Assembly (NCBI GenBank): GCA_947085855.1
Contig: CAMTYB010000001.1
Span: forward strand, 213,788-277,787
Source: an uncultured Candidatus Saccharibacteria bacterium
Lineage (GTDB): Bacteria; Patescibacteriota; Saccharimonadia; Saccharimonadales; 2-12-FULL-41-12
Direction of reading: 5' to 3'
DNA length: 64,000 nt
Each line of letters opens with the position of its first letter. The first letter of the stretch is position 1. The notes below the pieces were generated by a model. It was not told where the DNA came from. It was given only the letters and a program-made list of their open reading frames with translations, and searched no databases. The translations under genes were made by a program, and so were the position numbers. This document shows positions 1-8,958 of this stretch, piece after piece.

Positions 1-65
1 AGATAATTCTGCTCGGTGCCGCTAATTTTGGCGGATTTTTCTACAAAAGAAACTGTTTGACTCAT
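1..65 (-). CDS. 5' end of an unidentified gene running off the left edge (partial)
   Basis: A reverse-strand ATG at 63-65 opens a frame (MSQTVSFVEKSAKISGTEQNY...) that stays open to position 1. Only 21 codons are visible and there is no recognisable motif. Confidence 0.25.
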   Translation of the reverse strand, partial: MSQTVSFVEKSAKISGTEQNY

Positions 66-68
66 GAC

Positions 69-482
69 TTAATCACTATACGGCATCTCGTCGTCATCCT
101 TGACGATCCAGCCACCAGCGAAGGGGTAGCCCCTTCGTTCTTGCTCAGTCTTTTTAGCTTCAGCAGCCTCAGCCTCGGCTGTCTTTTTAGCCAATAGCTT
201 TTGGAATTCAAATTCGATAATATCACAGGCTAAGGCTCCAAGCATTTCTTCCTTATCCCAGTGCTCCATCATCTTTTCACCAAGTTGATACTTTTCCCGA
301 AGGGTAGCAGACGGCTCCGTTCGCCACATCTGGTCATGGCACGCTCGCTGCGCATCAATCACGCTTTTAAGGCCATTGGTAACGGTCTCAAACGTAATGA
401 TCGCCACGGGCAACTCTAAATAATCCTGTTGATATTCGGTCAAAAGGATTTGTTCGGCTGTAAAATTAACCATGTGTGTCAT
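69..482 (-). CDS. Hypothetical protein, 137 aa
   Basis: Longest ORF in the region, with ATG at 482 (alternative at 473). It has a charged helix KKTAEAEAAEAKKTEQERR and an acidic C-terminus. No family recognised. It sits about 50 nt downstream of the hairpin-terminated leader/ncRNA candidate. Confidence 0.5.
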   Translation of the reverse strand: MTHMVNFTAEQILLTEYQQDYLELPVAIITFETVTNGLKSVIDAQRACHDQMWRTEPSATLREKYQLGEKMMEHWDKEEMLGALACDIIEFEFQKLLAKKTAEAEAAEAKKTEQERRGYPFAGGWIVKDDDEMPYSD

Positions 483-530
483 CTATATAGGATTCCTGAG
501 ATTAGTTTGATGCTAGCACAACCGCATAGC

Positions 531-573
531 AATAAAAAGAGCCTCCAGAGGGGGTGGGCACCGCTGGAGGCTC
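531..573 (-). terminator. Intrinsic terminator / attenuator
   Basis: Reverse strand: GAGCCUCCAG, a 15-nt loop, CUGGAGGCUC, followed by UUUUUAUU. Confidence 0.6.
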
Positions 574-891
574 ATTACACCCTTCAACCCACCCGGGACA
601 AAGCACATGGCCTGCGTATTCGCCTAGGTCCAGCGCCTCTGAGAATACAGAATCTGGGGGACTTGTCCATTGAATCGGGTACTGATTTAACATTTTCTTC
701 ATAAATGAATTCTATAATCAAATCGGTAGTTAAAGGGATTAGTATGTTTTAGAGCCTATAACAGTAATAGTTATAGAAGCGAAACATCATGTGGAGGGTA
801 ACAACATGGTCCGCAAACTCTAAAACAATCTAACATTGGGGGTATGGAAGGTGCTTAAATACTGATACCAAAGGCATTTCAGTACTTACAA
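531..891 (-). ncRNA. Candidate ~355-nt structured RNA or attenuating leader (family unknown)
   Basis: Bounded by promoter 898-926 and terminator 531-573. It contains a 9-bp helix (816-808 pairs with 754-746) that encloses two hairpins, and a GGGUGGG/CCCACCC pseudoknot option. The only ORFs have no RBS and run through the terminator. Confidence 0.4.
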
Positions 892-897
892 ATTGCA

Positions 898-926
898 ATT
901 TTAGCAAAAATATTCTTTGGTGTCAA
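898..926 (-). promoter_or_regulatory. Sigma70-type promoter TTGACA-17-TAAAAT
   Basis: Reverse strand: TTGACA (926-921), a 17-nt spacer, TAAAAT (903-898). Confidence 0.6.
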
Positions 927-941
927 TACTTTTTCACGAAC

Positions 942-1640
942 TTGTGCATTATGCAAAATTTCATTATAGAACGATTAGCCATAAGCAGTCTGTCAGACAG
1001 TAGGCTACGAAGATCACTTTGCGCTAGTAAACCGGCTGTTTCTCATCTGTTTTACAGGGGTGACATCAGTCTACTCGCCAAAGATCGGGCACGCATTGCC
1101 ATCATTGGCACGCGCAAAATGACGCCAGCGGGCAGGGAAGCAACCTATCTACTGGCTGAAGCGGCCGCCAATAGTGGGGCAGTGGTCATCAGCGGTCTCG
1201 CGTTTGGAGTAGACACTGCCGCACACCAGGCCACATTAGACAGCGGAGGCAGGGCAGTTGCCATACTACCAGGTAGTCTTGAAGGAGTATATCCGGCACA
1301 TCACCAGCAACAAGCCATGCATATTATAAAGAGCGGGGGATTACTACTCAGTGAAGAGCCGTATCTTTTGCATCCAAAGAAATACCACTTTATCCTGCGC
1401 AATCGCATTATTGCCGCTCTGGCTGATATTATTCTGGTCATCGAAGCACCACACAAAAGTGGCAGCCTACACACAGTGGCGTATGGCACAGACATCAATA
1501 CGCCGATTGCAGCCGTACCCGGCGCTCTTAATAATCCGCAAGCCGCCGGTACCAACCTTCTTATAAGAGACGGTGCGCATGTCATTACATCGCCCGATGA
1601 CCTGCTACAACTCTTGCAGAAAGCGCCGGGCGGCACCTAA
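942..1640 (+). CDS. dprA: DNA processing protein DprA (Smf)
   Basis: DprA Rossmann-core motifs are present: IIGTRKMTPAGRE, VISGLAFGVDTAAH, RNRIIAALADIILVIEAPHKSGSLHT. The start could be TTG 942 or ATG 951. Confidence 0.85.
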   Translation: MCIMQNFIIERLAISSLSDSRLRRSLCASKPAVSHLFYRGDISLLAKDRARIAIIGTRKMTPAGREATYLLAEAAANSGAVVISGLAFGVDTAAHQATLDSGGRAVAILPGSLEGVYPAHHQQQAMHIIKSGGLLLSEEPYLLHPKKYHFILRNRIIAALADIILVIEAPHKSGSLHTVAYGTDINTPIAAVPGALNNPQAAGTNLLIRDGAHVITSPDDLLQLLQKAPGGT

Positions 1641-1724
1641 CACAGAAATGCTTGCAAAGTAAACACAAACAAAGTAGTCTATCAACTCGTACCGACAAGC
1701 GGTATACTAAAGCACAACCAATAT

Positions 1725-4031
1725 ATGTCTAATCCAAAAAACCTCGTAATCGTTGAGAGTCCAGCCAAAGCCAAGACCATCGAAAAGTATCTTGGCAAGG
1801 ATTTTAGTGTCAAAAGTAGTTTTGGCCATATTCGAGATTTGCCCAAAAAAGGACTGGCCATAGATAAAGACAACCACTTCGCACCTACCTACGAAATTGC
1901 AGCCGACAAGAAAAAGGTTGTGAGCGAACTCAAGAAAGCTGCCAAATCAGCTGATGCAGTCTGGCTTGCAAGTGACGAAGACCGTGAAGGAGAAGCTATT
2001 GCTTGGCATCTCTGTCATGCTCTTGGTCTCAAACCAGAAGAAACCAAGCGCATTGTCTTTCACGAAATCACCAAACCAGCTATCGAAGCAGCCGTCAAAA
2101 ACCCGCGCACCGTCGACATCAACCTCGTTGACGCTCAGCAAGCCCGTCGCGTTCTGGACCGCCTTGTCGGGTATGAACTATCGCCGGTTCTCTGGAAGAA
2201 AGTCCAAACTGGCCTCAGCGCAGGACGCGTCCAATCAGTCGCTGTCCGCTTAATCGTAGAGCGCGAACGCGAAATCATTGCTCACGAAGCCAAATCGCAA
2301 TTTAAAGTCTCTGGCAACTTTACAAGTAGCAACAGTGAAGCCGTGGAGCTCGTCGGCGAACTACCAAAACCACTGCCCGATGAAGCAGCCGTCCAAGACT
2401 TCTTGGGCTCACTTTCAAGCAGTAGATTTACCATCCACTCCTTAGCCAAGAAGCCGGGCACGCGCAATCCAGGCCCACCATTTACAACCAGTAGCCTACA
2501 GCAAGAAGCTTCTACTAAGCTTGGTTTCAGCGTCAAGCAAACCATGACCCTCGCGCAGCGCCTCTATGAAAATGGCCACATAACCTACATGCGTACCGAC
2601 AGCGTTAATCTGTCGCAGCAGTCGCTCAACGACGCCAAGTCTTATATAGGTAAAGAGTATGGCGACAAATATCATCAAGTGCGTACCTACAAAACAAAGA
2701 GTGCTGGCGCCCAAGAAGCCCACGAAGCGATTCGGCCAACTAACTTTTCTACTACAACGGCTGGGGCCGACGAACAGCAAAAGAAACTCTATGGTCTCAT
2801 CTGGAGACGAGCCCTAGCCAGCCAAATGGCCAGCGCCCAGATTGAGCGTAGTGAAATCGCCATCGCCATCAGTAATCGACCCGAGCAATTTGTTGCCAAA
2901 GGCGAAATTCTACAGTTTGATGGCTTTATCAAGGTCTATGGCGGTGGCAAAGATGACACCATCCTACCATCGGTCAAAGAAGGCGAAAATCTTACACTCA
3001 ACAGCGTGCGTGCACTTGAGTCATTCGACCGACCACCGGCTCGATATTCCGAAGCTTCGCTTGTAAAAAAACTCGAAGAACTCGGCATTGGCCGACCAAG
3101 CACCTACGCGCCAACTATTTCAACCATCCAAACTCGTAATTATGTAGAAAAGCGTGACGCCGACGGTGTCGAACGAAAACTGCGCGTCTTTACACTCAAG
3201 GACGGCACGATTACCCCTGACACCAAGACCGAAACTACCGGTGCTGAACGCAATCGCCTCATCCCAACCCATTTAGCCGACATGACCACCGACTTCCTAA
3301 CCAAGCACTTTGCTCCCATTGTCGACTACGACTTTACAGCTCGTGCCGAACAAGAGTTCGATAAAATCGCCGATGGTGATGCGCAGTGGCAAGCCACCAT
3401 TGAAGAATTTTATAAATCATTTCAGCCTTTAATAGAAAAGTCGGCCGATGTTAGCCGCGTCGAAGCCGCCCAGGCCCGCGTCCTTGGCAATGACCCCAAG
3501 ACCAAACAGCCAATTATGGCCCGCTACGGTCGGTTTGGACCAATGCTACAGAAGGGCGAAACCGAATCCGAAGAAAAGCCAGCTTTTGCACCGCTACCAG
3601 AAGGCGCCACCTTGACCACGGTCACGCTCGAGCAAGCCCTCGAAATGTTCAAGCTACCACGCACCGTAGGAGTTACTCAAGACGGGGTAGAAATCAAAGC
3701 TAACATTGGTCGATTTGGACCATATGTCCAGATAGACAAGCTATACGTCTCTATCAAGCCACTTGATCCACTGACCATCACCGAAGCTGAAGCTCGGGAA
3801 CTCTACGCCGAACGACTCAAAAAAGAGGCTGAAAAGTATATCCAGCAGTTCGATAACGGCATTTCTATCATTAACGGCCCATATGGACCATACATCACCA
3901 ATGGCAAAAAGAACGCCCGTATTCCAAAATCCGAAGATCCGTCCAAGCTCACCAAAGAACAAGCCACTGAGCTGCTCGAAAAGGCCCCCGACCGCAAAAA
4001 GCGGGCACCACGTCGCCGCAAATCGTCTTAG
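1725..4031 (+). CDS. topA: DNA topoisomerase I
   Basis: TOPRIM N-terminus LVIVESPAKAKTIEKYLG and active-site region ITYMRTDS. The C-terminal domain carries Cys-free GRFGPM/GRFGPY/GPYGPY repeats and a basic tail RKKRAPRRRKSS. Confidence 0.95.
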   Translation: MSNPKNLVIVESPAKAKTIEKYLGKDFSVKSSFGHIRDLPKKGLAIDKDNHFAPTYEIAADKKKVVSELKKAAKSADAVWLASDEDREGEAIAWHLCHALGLKPEETKRIVFHEITKPAIEAAVKNPRTVDINLVDAQQARRVLDRLVGYELSPVLWKKVQTGLSAGRVQSVAVRLIVEREREIIAHEAKSQFKVSGNFTSSNSEAVELVGELPKPLPDEAAVQDFLGSLSSSRFTIHSLAKKPGTRNPGPPFTTSSLQQEASTKLGFSVKQTMTLAQRLYENGHITYMRTDSVNLSQQSLNDAKSYIGKEYGDKYHQVRTYKTKSAGAQEAHEAIRPTNFSTTTAGADEQQKKLYGLIWRRALASQMASAQIERSEIAIAISNRPEQFVAKGEILQFDGFIKVYGGGKDDTILPSVKEGENLTLNSVRALESFDRPPARYSEASLVKKLEELGIGRPSTYAPTISTIQTRNYVEKRDADGVERKLRVFTLKDGTITPDTKTETTGAERNRLIPTHLADMTTDFLTKHFAPIVDYDFTARAEQEFDKIADGDAQWQATIEEFYKSFQPLIEKSADVSRVEAAQARVLGNDPKTKQPIMARYGRFGPMLQKGETESEEKPAFAPLPEGATLTTVTLEQALEMFKLPRTVGVTQDGVEIKANIGRFGPYVQIDKLYVSIKPLDPLTITEAEARELYAERLKKEAEKYIQQFDNGISIINGPYGPYITNGKKNARIPKSEDPSKLTKEQATELLEKAPDRKKRAPRRRKSS

Positions 4032-4404: not shown

Positions 4405-5430
4405 ATGACGCAAGCGCATATCGAAGAACTGGTTAACAACATACTCAACACGATTGAGCGAGAGCGAGAACGTGAAATTGTGTCACGCCGTTATGGACTT
4501 TTTGATCGCAAAGAAACACTCGAACAAATAGGGGAACTCCTTGGCATCACACGCGAACGCGTTCGTCAGCTTGAAAAATCAGTTATGTCACGTTTGCGTG
4601 CCAGCGCCGAAGCAGGCGACCTACCAGGTTTAACAGATTTCCAAGAAACACTTGTAACTAAACTCGACTCAGAAGGCAAGGCTTCGCGCATTGCTACCCT
4701 CAGCAGCGAAATTACAGGCGAGAACAGCTCAAAAATTGAGCAGTCACGCCTGTCTTTTATTGCTGAGCTATGCCCGCAATTGATCGTTGTCAACGACAAT
4801 GACTTTTACTTTCAATCGACAGCACTCGCATCAGTCCACGATGAAAAGGGCATTCAAAAGACCATCGCTGCAATCATCGATGCTATCAAGCAAATCGGCG
4901 AGCCGACTCCTATCGACAAGGTAGCCGACAAGGTCAGCGACAGCGACACCAAGCACGTTGAAGCACTCGCCAGCATCTCTAAACAACTTGCTACGCTCAA
5001 CGGCAAATGGGGTCTTGTGAAGTGGCCAACCGTTAATCCAAAGAATATTCGCGACAAGATTTACGTTATTTTGCAGCAAAATGGCAAACATATGCACTTC
5101 AATGAAATCGCTGAAGCTATCAAAGACTCAGACTTTAAGCGCAAAGATGTAACTACGCAAGCTATCCACAATGAACTTATCAAAGACAAGCGCTTCGTCC
5201 TCATCGGTCGTGGCATTTACGCTCTCAAGGAGTGGGGTTACAAGAAGGGCACCGTAGCCGATATTATCACCGAAGTCCTCAAAGACGCTGGCGAGCCGCT
5301 TCATCGCGATGAAATCGTTAAGCGCGTCCTCAAGAGTCGCTACGTCAAAGAAACTACCATTCTCCTGAACCTACAGGGCAAAACCCAGTTTAACCGCGTC
5401 GCCAAAGCAACCTACGCCCTCGCCGAATAG
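4405..5430 (+). CDS. Sigma-70 region-4-like HTH protein with C-terminal HARE-HTH-like modules (no region 2)
   Basis: N-terminus REIVSRRYGL...TLEQIGELLGITRERVRQLEKSVMSRLR resembles a region-4 HTH. It is followed by delta-subunit-like modules ending GKWGLVKW, GIYALKEWGY and ATYALAE. An AAGGAG Shine-Dalgarno (SD) sequence lies 9 nt upstream. Confidence 0.6.
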   Translation: MTQAHIEELVNNILNTIEREREREIVSRRYGLFDRKETLEQIGELLGITRERVRQLEKSVMSRLRASAEAGDLPGLTDFQETLVTKLDSEGKASRIATLSSEITGENSSKIEQSRLSFIAELCPQLIVVNDNDFYFQSTALASVHDEKGIQKTIAAIIDAIKQIGEPTPIDKVADKVSDSDTKHVEALASISKQLATLNGKWGLVKWPTVNPKNIRDKIYVILQQNGKHMHFNEIAEAIKDSDFKRKDVTTQAIHNELIKDKRFVLIGRGIYALKEWGYKKGTVADIITEVLKDAGEPLHRDEIVKRVLKSRYVKETTILLNLQGKTQFNRVAKATYALAE

Positions 5431-6850: not shown

Positions 6851-7804
6851 CTATTTGACGTAGGCTCGTTCTGGTACTCGCACGTCAATATACTCGGCTG
6901 GCTTTGGACCTTTCTGCTCTGCATAGTCGCGGGCTGCAATAAATGTGCCGAAGCTTTTGCGAGCATCTTCGTAGATACTAAACTTAGCATAATAGACAAC
7001 ACCGTCAAAGCGGGTGAACAGCTCCCCTCCCCCTGCGCGCAGTTCACTGACCTGGATGCTGAGTTTGGCGGCGGCAGCTTGGTGCTGAATTTCATTAATA
7101 AAGGCCACCTGCGTACTGGTGAGAGCCTGCTTGCCAACATCAATGCGAGCTTGTGACTCATCAACCACACGAGGTAGATCATCTCGCTTGGGGCTATCCT
7201 GCAACTGACTAAGGTTAACAAGAGCTTTACCAGTGCTATTCAGAAGAAAATCACCTTGGGACGTAGCCAAAACCAAGCTTGGTCGATTCAGCGTAGCGGT
7301 AACCGTTGCTCGGTTAGTAAATAGAGGTGTCGTGACACGCACACTGCTTAGCTCCGGAAATTTATTCTGTAGCTCTGCGGTGATTTTTTGACGGTCGAGC
7401 GTTAGCTTACTATAGCCCAAGAAGCCTTGTTGATTACTGAGTTCGGCGACGGCTTTTTCATATTCGGCAACTGGTCGTACAGCAGCATCTCCACCGGCAA
7501 TAACTACCTTTGGTGCGGCCGATAAGTGAGCCATTACAATAGCTAAAAGTACCCCACCGAGCACCCAAGCAGATAGGATACCTTTCTGGAGCCAGGTACG
7601 ACTAAACTGACGAGCTGTTGGACCTAAGCCAGCTGCCTCAGTATTACGACTTTGTTGCGGCCGTACGTCTGGTGATCTATTAGAACTATACTGAAACGCA
7701 TTCTGCTTTTGACGCATAATCTGTGGCGACCGACCGACCGGTGCTTTCGGTCGTCGCATTACCGTGCGAGCAAGTTGCTTTGTTAAGCGGCTCAGTCGAC
7801 TCAT
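6851..7804 (-). CDS. ftsQ: Cell division protein FtsQ/DivIB-like (POTRA)
   Basis: Basic cytoplasmic N-terminus, a single TM (GILSAWVLGGVLLAIVMAHL), then a POTRA-like segment. It occupies the last position of the dcw cluster, after murG, with a 4-nt overlap. Confidence 0.65.
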   Translation of the reverse strand: MSRLSRLTKQLARTVMRRPKAPVGRSPQIMRQKQNAFQYSSNRSPDVRPQQSRNTEAAGLGPTARQFSRTWLQKGILSAWVLGGVLLAIVMAHLSAAPKVVIAGGDAAVRPVAEYEKAVAELSNQQGFLGYSKLTLDRQKITAELQNKFPELSSVRVTTPLFTNRATVTATLNRPSLVLATSQGDFLLNSTGKALVNLSQLQDSPKRDDLPRVVDESQARIDVGKQALTSTQVAFINEIQHQAAAAKLSIQVSELRAGGGELFTRFDGVVYYAKFSIYEDARKSFGTFIAARDYAEQKGPKPAEYIDVRVPERAYVK

Positions 7805-8958
7805 GGGCGAGCAATCTCCAACAGAAGTTCTGCCAAATCTGCTGCTGGCTGCCGCTTCCCTTGCAGGGCATACATGTGCTCAGCCAACCGACGTCGCAGG
7901 GCTTTATCTGCTAATAGTGTGTCGACAGCTCGTAATAATGTAGCCGGGCTAGCTTCCAGTTCGTCTTCGGAGACTACAATCGCAGCGCCGGCATCGTGAT
8001 AAACGGTCGCATTCTTAAGCTGATGCCCTCCTGTTAGGTATGGGTTAGGCACAATGATGCAGGCTTTCTTTTGCATAGCGAAATCAGCCAACGCCGAAGC
8101 TCCAGCGCGCGCAATAACCACATCAGCGACGGCACTCATATGGAATAACTCACTTGAGAATGCGAAGAAATGAGTTCGCTTTTTTAGCGCTACGGGCAAA
8201 TTTTCTAACTGATCATCGTTACCCTCGCCAATTTGATGGAAGACACGTAAATTCGGGTGAAGCTCCAGTAATTCCGGAAGTACGCCTATAACCGCTTCAT
8301 TGAGCCGTCTGGCGCCGTTACTACCACCAGTAATCAACAGGACCGGATCAGACTTAGATAGCCTTAGATCGGCTCGTATGCGCTCCTGCTCCTCACTAGA
8401 GTAATGGCGGAACCGTGCATCAGTTGGCACCCCAACCACTCGAATCGTTTTCTTGGGGTAGTTATAGTATTCGGCTGGCATAGCCGTTGCATGGTAGCGC
8501 GCCCAACGCGCAGCCAACCTATTTGATAATCCGGGCAACGCATCTGAGTCATGAGTAATATACGGAACATGATGCAGCCGACCGGCTGCTGCCACCGGCA
8601 CACAGACAAAACCACCCTTCAGTAGCATGGCAGTGGGTTTGAGGCGCCCGAGTAATCGGTAAGCCTGGAAAAGACCGCGCAATAGTCGGAAAAAATCACG
8701 AATATTTAAGATATTTGTCTTAACATCAAAGAGCTTAGTCAGGAGGGATTCACCATGGTACCGCCGTAATTTACCGGCCGAGATAAAATGCAGTTCATCA
8801 AAGAGCTGACTGTCTTTGGCTATGTAGGCAAATTTGCCACCGGTTTCGCCGATGTAGACGAGTCTAGCCTTGGGGTGCTTTTTGCGCAGTTCAGACGCGA
8901 CGGCTAGAAGCGGCGTAATATGGCCGCCCGACCCGCCGCCGCAGAGGACGATTGTCAT
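7801..8958 (-). CDS. murG: Undecaprenyl-PP-MurNAc-pentapeptide GlcNAc transferase MurG
   Basis: N-terminus MTIVLCGGGSGGHITPLLAV. GT28 C-terminal motifs ITGGSNGARRLN and ARAGASALADF. Confidence 0.9.
   Translation of the reverse strand: MTIVLCGGGSGGHITPLLAVASELRKKHPKARLVYIGETGGKFAYIAKDSQLFDELHFISAGKLRRYHGESLLTKLFDVKTNILNIRDFFRLLRGLFQAYRLLGRLKPTAMLLKGGFVCVPVAAAGRLHHVPYITHDSDALPGLSNRLAARWARYHATAMPAEYYNYPKKTIRVVGVPTDARFRHYSSEEQERIRADLRLSKSDPVLLITGGSNGARRLNEAVIGVLPELLELHPNLRVFHQIGEGNDDQLENLPVALKKRTHFFAFSSELFHMSAVADVVIARAGASALADFAMQKKACIIVPNPYLTGGHQLKNATVYHDAGAAIVVSEDELEASPATLLRAVDTLLADKALRRRLAEHMYALQGKRQPAADLAELLLEIARP

Follow-up and report, generated by a model that had tools for sequence, protein, structure and literature searches.

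A probable new family of structured RNA at the dprA/topA–pth/der locus of Saccharibacteria

In a stretch of 64,000 nt from contig CAMTYB010000001.1 of an uncultured Candidatus Saccharibacteria bacterium (hereafter the window) we found, on the minus strand at positions 531 to ~893, a unit of ~360 nt, delimited from sequence signals, that is almost certainly the gene of a free-standing, conserved and structured non-coding RNA (ncRNA) of a new family. An initial annotation of this region had offered two ideas, a novel structured or free-standing small RNA and a riboswitch-like leader or cis-regulatory attenuator. The first is supported by the lack of a match in Rfam, by helix covariation in ~100 relatives and by open reading frames (ORFs) that are not conserved, while the second is contradicted by the gene arrangement downstream. 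We further consider it rather probable that the RNA is constitutively transcribed at the dprA/topA–pth/der locus and serves in trans as a scaffold which displays C-rich elements; taken by itself, this display or docking mechanism is put forward tentatively.

The RNA gene, its relatives and its genomic setting

A sigma-70-type promoter (898-926, minus strand) precedes the unit, with TTGACA at 926-921, a 17-nt spacer and a TG-extended TAAAAT at 903-898. It scored 11/12 plus the TG extension, was the top promoter-like site of window positions 1-2000 in a promoter scan, and lies where the initial annotation had placed it. Transcription is predicted to start at ~895-891. The unit ends at a terminal module (531-573, minus strand) that consists of a 10-bp stem (573-564 with 548-539; arms GAGCCUCCAG and CUGGAGGCUC, 7 G-C among the 10 bp), a 15-nt loop at 563-549 (CGGUGCCCACCCCCU) and a U-tract (538-531), in which uridines at 538-534 are followed by AUU to 531; the sequence directly 3' of the stem is UUUUUAUU. 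This is the GC-rich stem-loop with a terminal U-tract that characterizes an intrinsic terminator. The loop is longer than the 8 nt allowed in a simple terminator scan, which therefore did not report this hairpin. As the initial annotation had noted, the hairpin precedes the ATG (position 482) of a 137-aa ORF, from which its end is separated by 48 nt.

Relatives of this unit were reached by several routes. A TopA protein search led to 16 genome loci, ten in a Saccharibacteria set and six in other phyla. The ten are metagenome-assembled genomes (MAGs) of Saccharibacteria/Saccharimonadales, or MAGs labelled only 'bacterium' that carry the RNA, and have a TopA identity of 61-69%. With the window region as query, nhmmer matched all ten (E 4e-32 to 2e-12) on a constant strand relative to topA, and gave no match at the six non-Saccharibacteria topA loci. 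By eye, the TopA-locus homologues share a common promoter and several identical blocks with variable hairpins between them. A metagenome scan with a pattern made from two of these blocks (the 5' strand of helix P3 and the loop block of helix P4, see below) yielded at least 120 loci. Among the matches listed, 133 loci (genome and metagenome) contain the core block, and 113 of them combine the promoter with the 3' loop; the 20 others comprise 14 with no 3'-loop match, most of them at a contig end, and 6 in which the promoter match alone is missing. The 113 full-length copies, again among the matches listed, represent 107 unique sequences of 293-594 nt. Most complete homologues carry the -35/-10 pair, at a constant spacing from the 5' end of the RNA.

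We built a covariance model, R1, on the 5' domain only and used anchored alignments for the 3' part. R1 scored the window copy with 105.3 bits (E = 2e-21) and matched Saccharibacteria that were reached via DprA homologues, at 102 bits in L221 and L222 and at 69 bits in L225. In the last of these, which was chosen without any RNA pattern, the G block, P6 and the terminal loop are all unchanged. No R1 match was found in an Uhrbacteria locus (L224), in another Patescibacteria locus or in the six topA loci from outside the candidate phyla radiation. As far as tested, the RNA family thus appears to be specific to Saccharibacteria. The window copy holds the family blocks UACCCUCCAC, CUAACCCCUUUAAC, GUUGAAGGG and CGGUGCCCACCCCCU in this order, together with P1, P3, P6 and the terminal stem. 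One locus (L155) carries two complete RNA genes on opposite strands (~1000(-) and ~3270(+)), possibly as recombination remnants or assembly effects.

The genomic setting was nearly invariant. When each locus is read with the RNA on the plus strand, dprA precedes it in 85 of 86 loci and is encoded on the minus strand in all but one of the 86; topA likewise precedes it and is encoded on the minus strand in 75/75, pth follows downstream in convergent orientation in 78/78, and der comes next in 52/52. The source genome (L220) shows the order der, pth, a convergent 111-aa gene, the 137-aa gene, the RNA, and then dprA and topA. Between the end of the RNA and the stop codon of pth there are -7 to 1927 nt (73 loci); this gap is below 150 nt in 18 loci and 400 nt or more in 34. 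Some gaps are empty, and the others contain unrelated ORFs, most of which share the strand of the RNA and many of which begin no more than 140 nt past the terminator. Because the conserved neighbour pth is convergent and the gap holds unrelated ORFs or none, we regard the RNA as a free-standing gene, and its 3' flank is a variable cargo site beside a stable-RNA gene.

These data also bear on the leader idea, according to which the unit is an attenuator, riboswitch or other cis-regulatory leader that controls read-through into the 137-aa gene. The terminator does end close to the same-strand ATG at 482, two small same-strand genes follow in the source genome, and many relatives have unrelated same-strand ORFs 0-140 nt past the terminator, so that read-through into cargo is conceivable; moreover, a GUUAG segment of the RNA has alternative partners, in P2 or in CUAAC (see below). 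However, the downstream genes are not conserved and form no consistent family: in 18 loci less than 150 nt separates the RNA from the convergent pth, and others hold unrelated ORFs. Pfam, PADLOC and PHROG gave no match for the 137-aa protein, and the ORFs found in its place in relatives are unrelated to it. Inspection by eye showed no conserved anti-terminator, such as a complement of the variable terminator stem, although no dedicated search was made, and the sole conserved complementarity is that between the G block and the loop; no Rfam riboswitch matched; and the invariant terminal loop also occurs in phages without any logic of downstream genes. We therefore hold a leader function to be quite improbable. 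Read-through might feed cargo genes in individual genomes, yet this cannot be the conserved function.

The 137-aa ORF (69-482, minus strand) is the first gene of a two-gene insertion (137 aa and 111 aa) that separates the RNA terminator from the convergent pth. This cassette covers window positions 1-482 on the minus strand, continues in L220:5929-6681(-) and lies outside the RNA family. Neither protein matched Pfam, PADLOC or PHROG, and an exact-sequence look-up of the 137-aa protein found no match.

Both ORFs that the initial annotation had placed within the unit, a 91-aa ORF at 429-704 on the plus strand and a 66-aa ORF at 502-702 on the minus strand, are present in the ORF list, and tblastn with the latter matches many homologues. 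A small-protein gene nevertheless has practically no chance of explaining the conservation. The tblastn matches are limited to residues 37-57, which lie over invariant nucleotide blocks, and the 33 N-terminal residues match no homologue. The spacing between blocks modulo 3 (0, 1, 2) was distributed 46:19:19 among sequences, so 45% are not multiples of three, and an open frame is kept in 37%. The longest ORF in homologues has a median of 46 aa in sense and 44 aa in antisense, neither of the two window ORFs has a Pfam match, the 66-aa ORF runs through the terminator, and substitutions in the helices are compensatory.

The initial annotation had proposed a scan against Rfam together with a covariation test in relatives; the latter found the helices conserved and covarying (next section), and the former gave no assignment. 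Rfam 15 (4227 covariance models) had 0 gathering matches in the 64-kb window. At E<=10 on positions 400-1000 there were three unrelated weak matches, the best with 17.3 bits against a cut-off of 45, and at E<=5 on 20 homologue loci four scattered unrelated matches. ARAGORN detected neither tRNA nor transfer-messenger RNA (tmRNA) in the window and no tmRNA in loci L001-L162. In the literature, of which our coverage was incomplete so that a prior description might exist elsewhere, we found no account of this RNA, and a survey of 224 motifs lists lysM-TM7 alone for the phylum Saccharibacteria. The RNA would accordingly represent a previously uncatalogued family.

A strongly diverged housekeeping RNA that standard models miss, i.e. 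RNase P RNA, tmRNA, signal recognition particle (SRP) RNA or 6S RNA, was considered as well. The length of ~300-600 nt, the strong promoter, the single copy per locus, the lineage-wide presence and ~100 invariant nt would all suit such an RNA, and the neighbours pth and der are translation-related. We still rate this as very improbable. None of the four was matched at E<=10 with lax filters in the window region or at E<=5 in the 20 homologues. All four are closed by a terminal helix, which in bacterial RNase P RNA is P1, joining the two ends; in contrast, the 5' and 3' ends of the RNA described here do not pair with each other, and its 3' end is the terminator hairpin. It has no tRNA-like domain according to ARAGORN, and it is branched rather than an end-closed rod of the 6S or Ms1 type. 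The P4 strands of bacterial RNase P RNA are GGAAAGUCC and ACAGAA..GGCUUA. Neither GGAAAGUCC/ACAGAA nor a T-arm with CCA end nor the SRP domain IV motif was seen by eye in the sequences read, for which no pattern search was made. As a further point in favour, the block GGGUUGAAGGGUG may faintly resemble the GGGUGAAAGGGUG segment of the RNase P S-domain.

A CRISPR tracrRNA or repeat came into view on account of GUUUUAGAG, which resembles the start of a Cas9 repeat, and was rejected: there is no tandem or interspersed repeat array and no cas-like context, GTTTTAGAG occurs 3 times, two of these being the arms of P3, and the largest ORF has 900 aa.

In the window, dprA (942-1640, plus strand, Pfam DNA_processg_A) and topA (1725-4031) adjoin the RNA gene, both divergent from it. 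The encoded DprA is short (229-232 aa) and has no C-terminal winged-helix domain PF17782; most database homologues have 280-390 aa and include this domain. The gene order der-pth-...-dprA-topA extends from Saccharibacteria to Uhrbacteria, and the RNA gene sits between pth and dprA in Saccharibacteria alone. The Uhrbacteria locus shows the same order, der-pth-(kinase)-dprA-topA, with an amino-acid kinase gene between pth and dprA, and the spaces between its genes, 167 and 9 nt, are too short to hold the RNA. A gene-free gap of 745 nt upstream of dprA in a non-Saccharibacteria member of the Patescibacteria (L223:3003-3748) holds a TTGACA-like box and several GC-rich hairpins, without an R1 match.

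Fold of the RNA

The minus-strand RNA has a minimum free energy (MFE) of -120.3 kcal/mol (z = -7.06), and 0 of 100 shuffled sequences were equally stable; the plus strand folded with z = -3.43. The frequent G-U pairs, which would read A.C on the plus strand, establish the minus strand as the RNA strand. The 5' domain was evaluated in two alignments. In a model-fitted alignment of 100 sequences, which leans to the model structure, 95.5% of the cells were paired as compared to 88.0% after shuffling and at most 45.5% in slid controls, with 15 compensatory pairs; a MAFFT alignment of 82 sequences is independent of the model.

The 5' hairpin P1 (856-888, minus strand, as are all following positions; MFE fold) has a conserved base, GUAA/UUAC in most relatives, and a variable upper part. 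Its median z was -3.4 against shuffles in 104 unique homologues, and 8 of its 9 pairs show compensatory changes in the MAFFT alignment, as do 9 of 9 in the covariance model alignment. A conserved C-rich linker, J1/2 (838-853), follows, with CACCUUCCAUACCCCC in the window and the consensus CACCUUAUAUCCCCCA, and has no supported partner. The MFE fold pairs J1/2 (CACCUU..CCCCC) with a G-rich hub near the 3' end. We rejected this helix in favour of P6, with which it is mutually exclusive, because P6 covaries and the J1/2 pairing does not: more than 15 sequences show C.A and C.U mismatches in it, and where the hub changes from GGG to GGC, J1/2 does not change in step. J1/2 is therefore taken as unpaired or as engaged in tertiary or trans contacts.

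Next comes GUUAG (830-834), which in most relatives is the 3' strand of P2 (UUCUAAC/GUUAGA). P2 carries variable hairpin inserts of up to ~165 nt (median z -4.9 in 45 sequences) and is ~99% paired (99.2% in the MAFFT alignment), with wobble changes only. Its 5' strand, UUCUAAC, is the sole family part missing from the window copy, and is missing likewise in L046 and L225. The window GUUAG can alternatively pair with CUAAU at 742-738, extending P3, where a C-to-U change gives a G-U pair; according to RNAalifold, the corresponding pairing of GUUAG to CUAAC comprises 74 GC plus 8 GU. Most members therefore offer GUUAG two mutually exclusive conserved partners, P2 or CUAAC.

The core of the 5' domain is a three-way junction (746-826) in which P3 closes P4 (814-779) and P5 (776-756). 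P3 has 9 bp in the window, between GUUUUAGAG at 826-818 and CUCUAAAAC at 754-746. The initial annotation had recognized this helix and given its 3' arm correctly, whereas it had placed the 5' arm at 816-808. The two enclosed hairpins are as it had described them, CAUGU/ACAUG at 808-804 / 792-788 and CUAUAAC/GUUAUAG at 776-770 / 762-756. P3 was 99.5-99.7% paired across homologues and contains many G-U pairs, with compensatory changes at 4 of 12 pairs; the invariance of its 5' strand and of the P4 loop block GUUGUUACCCUCCAC in the metagenome set follows by construction from the search pattern. P4 and P5 form in homologues of differing sequence, P4 is supported by compensatory base changes as well, and P5 is variable. 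The apical loop block of P4 (791-805), GUUGUUACCCUCCAC, contains an anti-Shine-Dalgarno-like CCUCC and is identical in the window and in all 10 TopA-found genome loci, an unbiased set in this respect. L225 has AGUACCCUCCAC instead, and the hard core of the P4 loop is therefore UACCCUCCAC.

The conserved segment CAnACUAACCCCUUUAAC lies between the three-way junction and a variable 3' domain. The 5' strand of P6 (729-737, CCCUUUAAC) is preceded by the conserved CAUACUAAU (consensus CAnACUAAC) and pairs with GUUGAAGGG at 588-580. Three independent compensations support P6: 13 sequences have AAG/CUU in place of AAC/GUU, 4 have GCC/GGC in place of CCC/GGG, and 2 have C-G in place of U-G. The 3' domain enclosed by P6 (595-728; MFE fold) comprises a hairpin at ~727-681, the conserved CCCGAUUCAAUG at 679-668, an inner closing helix and hairpins inside this helix, and it occurs in at least three architectural subtypes among homologues. 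The inner helix covaries and is formed in the window by GGACAAG (668-662) and CUUUGUCC (603-596), complementary strands that differ entirely from those of relatives, in which GCGA/UCGC, GUGA/UCAC and GUGA/UCGC were seen and C.A occurred in 0 of 76 sequences. The G-rich hub (580-594, GGGUGGGUUGAAGGG; GGGGUGGGUUGAAGGGUG in the family comparison) provides with 588-580 the 3' strand of P6, and its GGGUGGG (594-588) is complementary to the terminal loop. Optional extra hairpins are found between the hub and the terminal hairpin. The G block is present in ~92% of the unique homologues and absent or degenerate in 8.

The terminal hairpin and its copies in phage contigs

The terminal hairpin combines a variable, covarying stem with a nearly fixed loop. 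In a gapless, loop-anchored alignment of 102 distinct copies the stem was 93.0% paired, compared to 59.0% in shuffled and 37-48% in slid controls; its covariation score was 0.862 versus 0.211 after shuffling, and 12 of 12 pairs change on both sides. In sequences that had not been selected on the loop, 14 of its 15 positions were invariant. T-rich tails follow across host homologues. The loop sequence occurs once in the 64-kb window, and in ~0.9 Mb of host DNA there was one loop per RNA gene, apart from L155 and partial duplicates in L092 and L056. In L092 (~5170-5210(+)) the loop and the 3' half of the stem recur 214 nt after the RNA, and in L056 a loop fragment lies directly 3' of the U-tract; both might be recombination remnants or assembly effects.

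The complementarity of GGGUGGG (594-588) with CCCACCC in the loop (558-552), which the initial annotation had pointed out, is present, and its six core pairs never vary in homologues. An H-type pseudoknot in cis is possible on this basis. As the cause of loop conservation it is weakened, because eight unique host RNAs (L050, L093, L063, L117, L068, L087, L075 and L095) have lost the GGGGUGGG block and keep the loop intact, and because the stand-alone hairpins in phage-like contigs have, with one exception, no G-rich partner nearby. The loop is hence conserved beyond what a cis pseudoknot would demand.

These phage copies emerged from a scan of IMG/VR for GCGGTGCCCACCCCCTCT, which found 26 contigs (L017-L042). 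A control with a random 15-mer of similar kind gave ~56 chance matches, from which about one chance match would be expected for an 18-mer. All 26 viral-contig hairpins have the identical loop on covarying stems of 8-22 bp and of differing sequence. The full RNA is present in only 1 of the 26 contigs (L035); the other 25 hold stand-alone hairpins, all on the sense strand of the neighbouring genes (for example L026:5294-5332(-), L019:2857-2895(+) and L030:498-536(+)). A G-rich partner within 300 nt was found for 1 of these 25, and in phage operons the U-tract is often missing. Neighbouring genes encode terminase, portal, head-tail adaptor, head protease, major head, FtsK-like, exonuclease and endolysin proteins. 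Typical sites lie between a small ORF after portal and the genes for protease, scaffold or major head protein, and others are 5' untranslated regions, operon ends and the 3' end of short promoter-driven transcripts; three hairpins (L017, L022, L025) apparently lie within reading frames. None of the cultured phages in INPHARED has the hairpin, and six phage loci gave no match to an Rfam model.

L035 is a phage-like contig of 38 kb with RecT-like, FtsK-like and exonuclease genes. It carries the full RNA at its very end (7972-8370(+)) and a second, independent hairpin (6852-6890(-)) on the other strand, which precedes the RNA gene by ~1.1 kb. This RNA does not have dprA upstream, and the contig might represent a prophage junction or a phage-captured RNA gene.

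The sharing of a 3' segment between a host RNA gene and phages could also reflect integration, with the 3' end of the RNA as attB and the phage copies as attP. The variable cargo site just 3' of the RNA, the partial second loop copies in L092 (+214 nt) and L056 (adjacent), and the phage-like contig that ends right after the full RNA gene are consistent with this. Yet we consider it unlikely, since no integrase was among the 25 most frequent of 97 PHROG families (98 neighbour proteins within 3.5 kb) and the phage hairpins are located in head-morphogenesis modules or at the ends of small transcripts. Their stems moreover differ from those of the host, and recombination in the loop would break the hairpin. 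Complete covarying stems in fixed sense orientation argue instead for a function as a hairpin, and the terminal hairpin accordingly appears to be both an intrinsic terminator and an autonomous recognition module.

Possible function and comparison with known RNAs

The invariant nucleotides that are comparatively unpaired are mostly C-rich and belong to J1/2, the P4 loop UACCCUCCAC and the terminal loop CGGUGCCCACCCCCU. The single conserved G-rich segment is largely used by P6. From this imbalance we infer that the C-rich elements are displayed to an external partner. In the mechanism that we propose, the RNA would act in trans as a folded scaffold presenting these elements. The partner might be a G-rich RNA, Shine-Dalgarno-like or rRNA-like, with the C-rich loops of RNAIII as the closest functional analogy, or a protein specific for C-rich RNA, in which case the RNA would be a sponge or scaffold like CsrB or 6S RNA. 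The 3' hairpin would terminate transcription and probably protect the 3' end, while its loop would be where a trans factor docks; phages presumably exploit this factor through the hairpins on their late mRNAs and small transcripts. In cis, the GGGUGGG/CCCACCC pseudoknot may serve to mask or position the loop.

Two more specific versions can be compared with this scheme. In the first, the C-rich elements titrate a protein that binds C-rich RNA, such as a KH-domain protein or Rho, rather than base pairing with RNA, in the way that CsrB titrates CsrA and 6S RNA titrates RNA polymerase. Three or four distinct invariant C-rich elements on one scaffold would fit a sponge, 14 invariant loop positions are more in keeping with an interface to a protein or a tertiary contact than with a short seed, and no complementary target was found in the window. 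On the other hand, the elements do not repeat a single motif, gene neighbourhood points to no candidate protein, and the case is purely inferential; we regard this version as possible but doubtful. In the second, which we hold with similar reserve, the RNA would be the subunit of a Saccharibacteria-specific ribonucleoprotein or a ribozyme with a housekeeping role, and its 3' loop would dock a host factor that phages hijack via their head-gene mRNAs or small transcripts. Such a role would most plausibly be linked to translation because of the anti-Shine-Dalgarno-like loops and the pth/der neighbourhood.

Several points weigh against the trans-acting scaffold as favoured here. Transcription, RNA ends and abundance are deduced from sequence signals, and the idea of C-rich display derives from sequence character and analogy. 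Unbiased support for the P3 5' strand and the P4 loop comes from 13 loci, i.e. the ten genome loci plus L221, L222 and L225. A search of the window for complements of the loops found nothing beyond the RNA gene itself, and a wider k-mer scan of the loci was uninformative, as the loci are mutually homologous and the antisense of the RNA gene itself confounds the result. The phage copies could act as single-stranded DNA and not as RNA. Finally, with same-strand ORFs just past the terminator here and in many relatives, read-through could have a secondary effect in cis.

Saccharibacteria are ultrasmall epibionts with reduced genomes of ~0.7-1 Mb. Given its own consensus promoter, ~100 invariant nt and an elaborate covarying fold, an RNA of 300-600 nt at a fixed locus in such a reduced genome very likely does something central to the lineage. 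According to a transcriptome study, small RNAs have not been validated in the model strain TM7x (10.1101/2022.03.25.485537), and genetics in Saccharibacteria is feasible via natural transformation (PMC10633639). A hairpin of 40 nt with an invariant loop, common to a host RNA and to phage late mRNAs, would point to a contest between host and phage over one factor, and the terminal hairpin would be a compact bait for finding it.

The RNA would join a short list of large orphan bacterial RNAs, of which OLE, ROOL and GOLLD have led to new biochemistry. Like OLE, ROOL, GOLLD and the raiA motif RNA, it is free-standing and several hundred nt long, with many covarying helices, long-range pairing and invariant junction or loop nucleotides. 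A link to phages is common to both sides, but there is no sequence or structure match to these families in Rfam 15. ROOL and GOLLD are often borne by prophages (PMC5737381, PMC12286853), whereas the RNA described here is chromosomal and syntenic, occurs as a whole in a single viral match, and is restricted to Saccharibacteria within the range tested.

Other parallels concern parts of the RNA. In Staphylococcus aureus RNAIII, C-rich loops, including that of the terminator, pair with the Shine-Dalgarno regions of target mRNAs. RNAIII and RsaE/RoxS resemble the present RNA in their multiple hairpins, long-range helices and C-rich loops, here CCUCC in the P4 loop and CCCACCCCCU in the terminal loop. 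There is no homology, however, and the present RNA is conserved far more deeply (at the level of class or phylum, with ~100 invariant nt) than base-pairing small RNAs usually are, and contains no embedded peptide gene. With tRNA and tmRNA genes it shares the character of a conserved single-copy stable-RNA gene that has a variable 3' flank, a 3' segment found in phages and occasional partial 3' duplications; it differs in having no tRNA-like domain, and its phage copies have their own complete stems within structural-gene modules, with no integrase among the PHROG families listed. Ordinary terminators have short, unconserved loops, while the loop in question has 15 nt, is invariant and appears once per ~64 kb. 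With terminators and stabiliser hairpins that are recognised by a protein, such as the histone mRNA stem-loop bound by SLBP, the terminal module shares the GC-rich stem and U-tract at the RNA end, and its conserved loop on a variable stem suggests a trans factor that could protect RNA ends.

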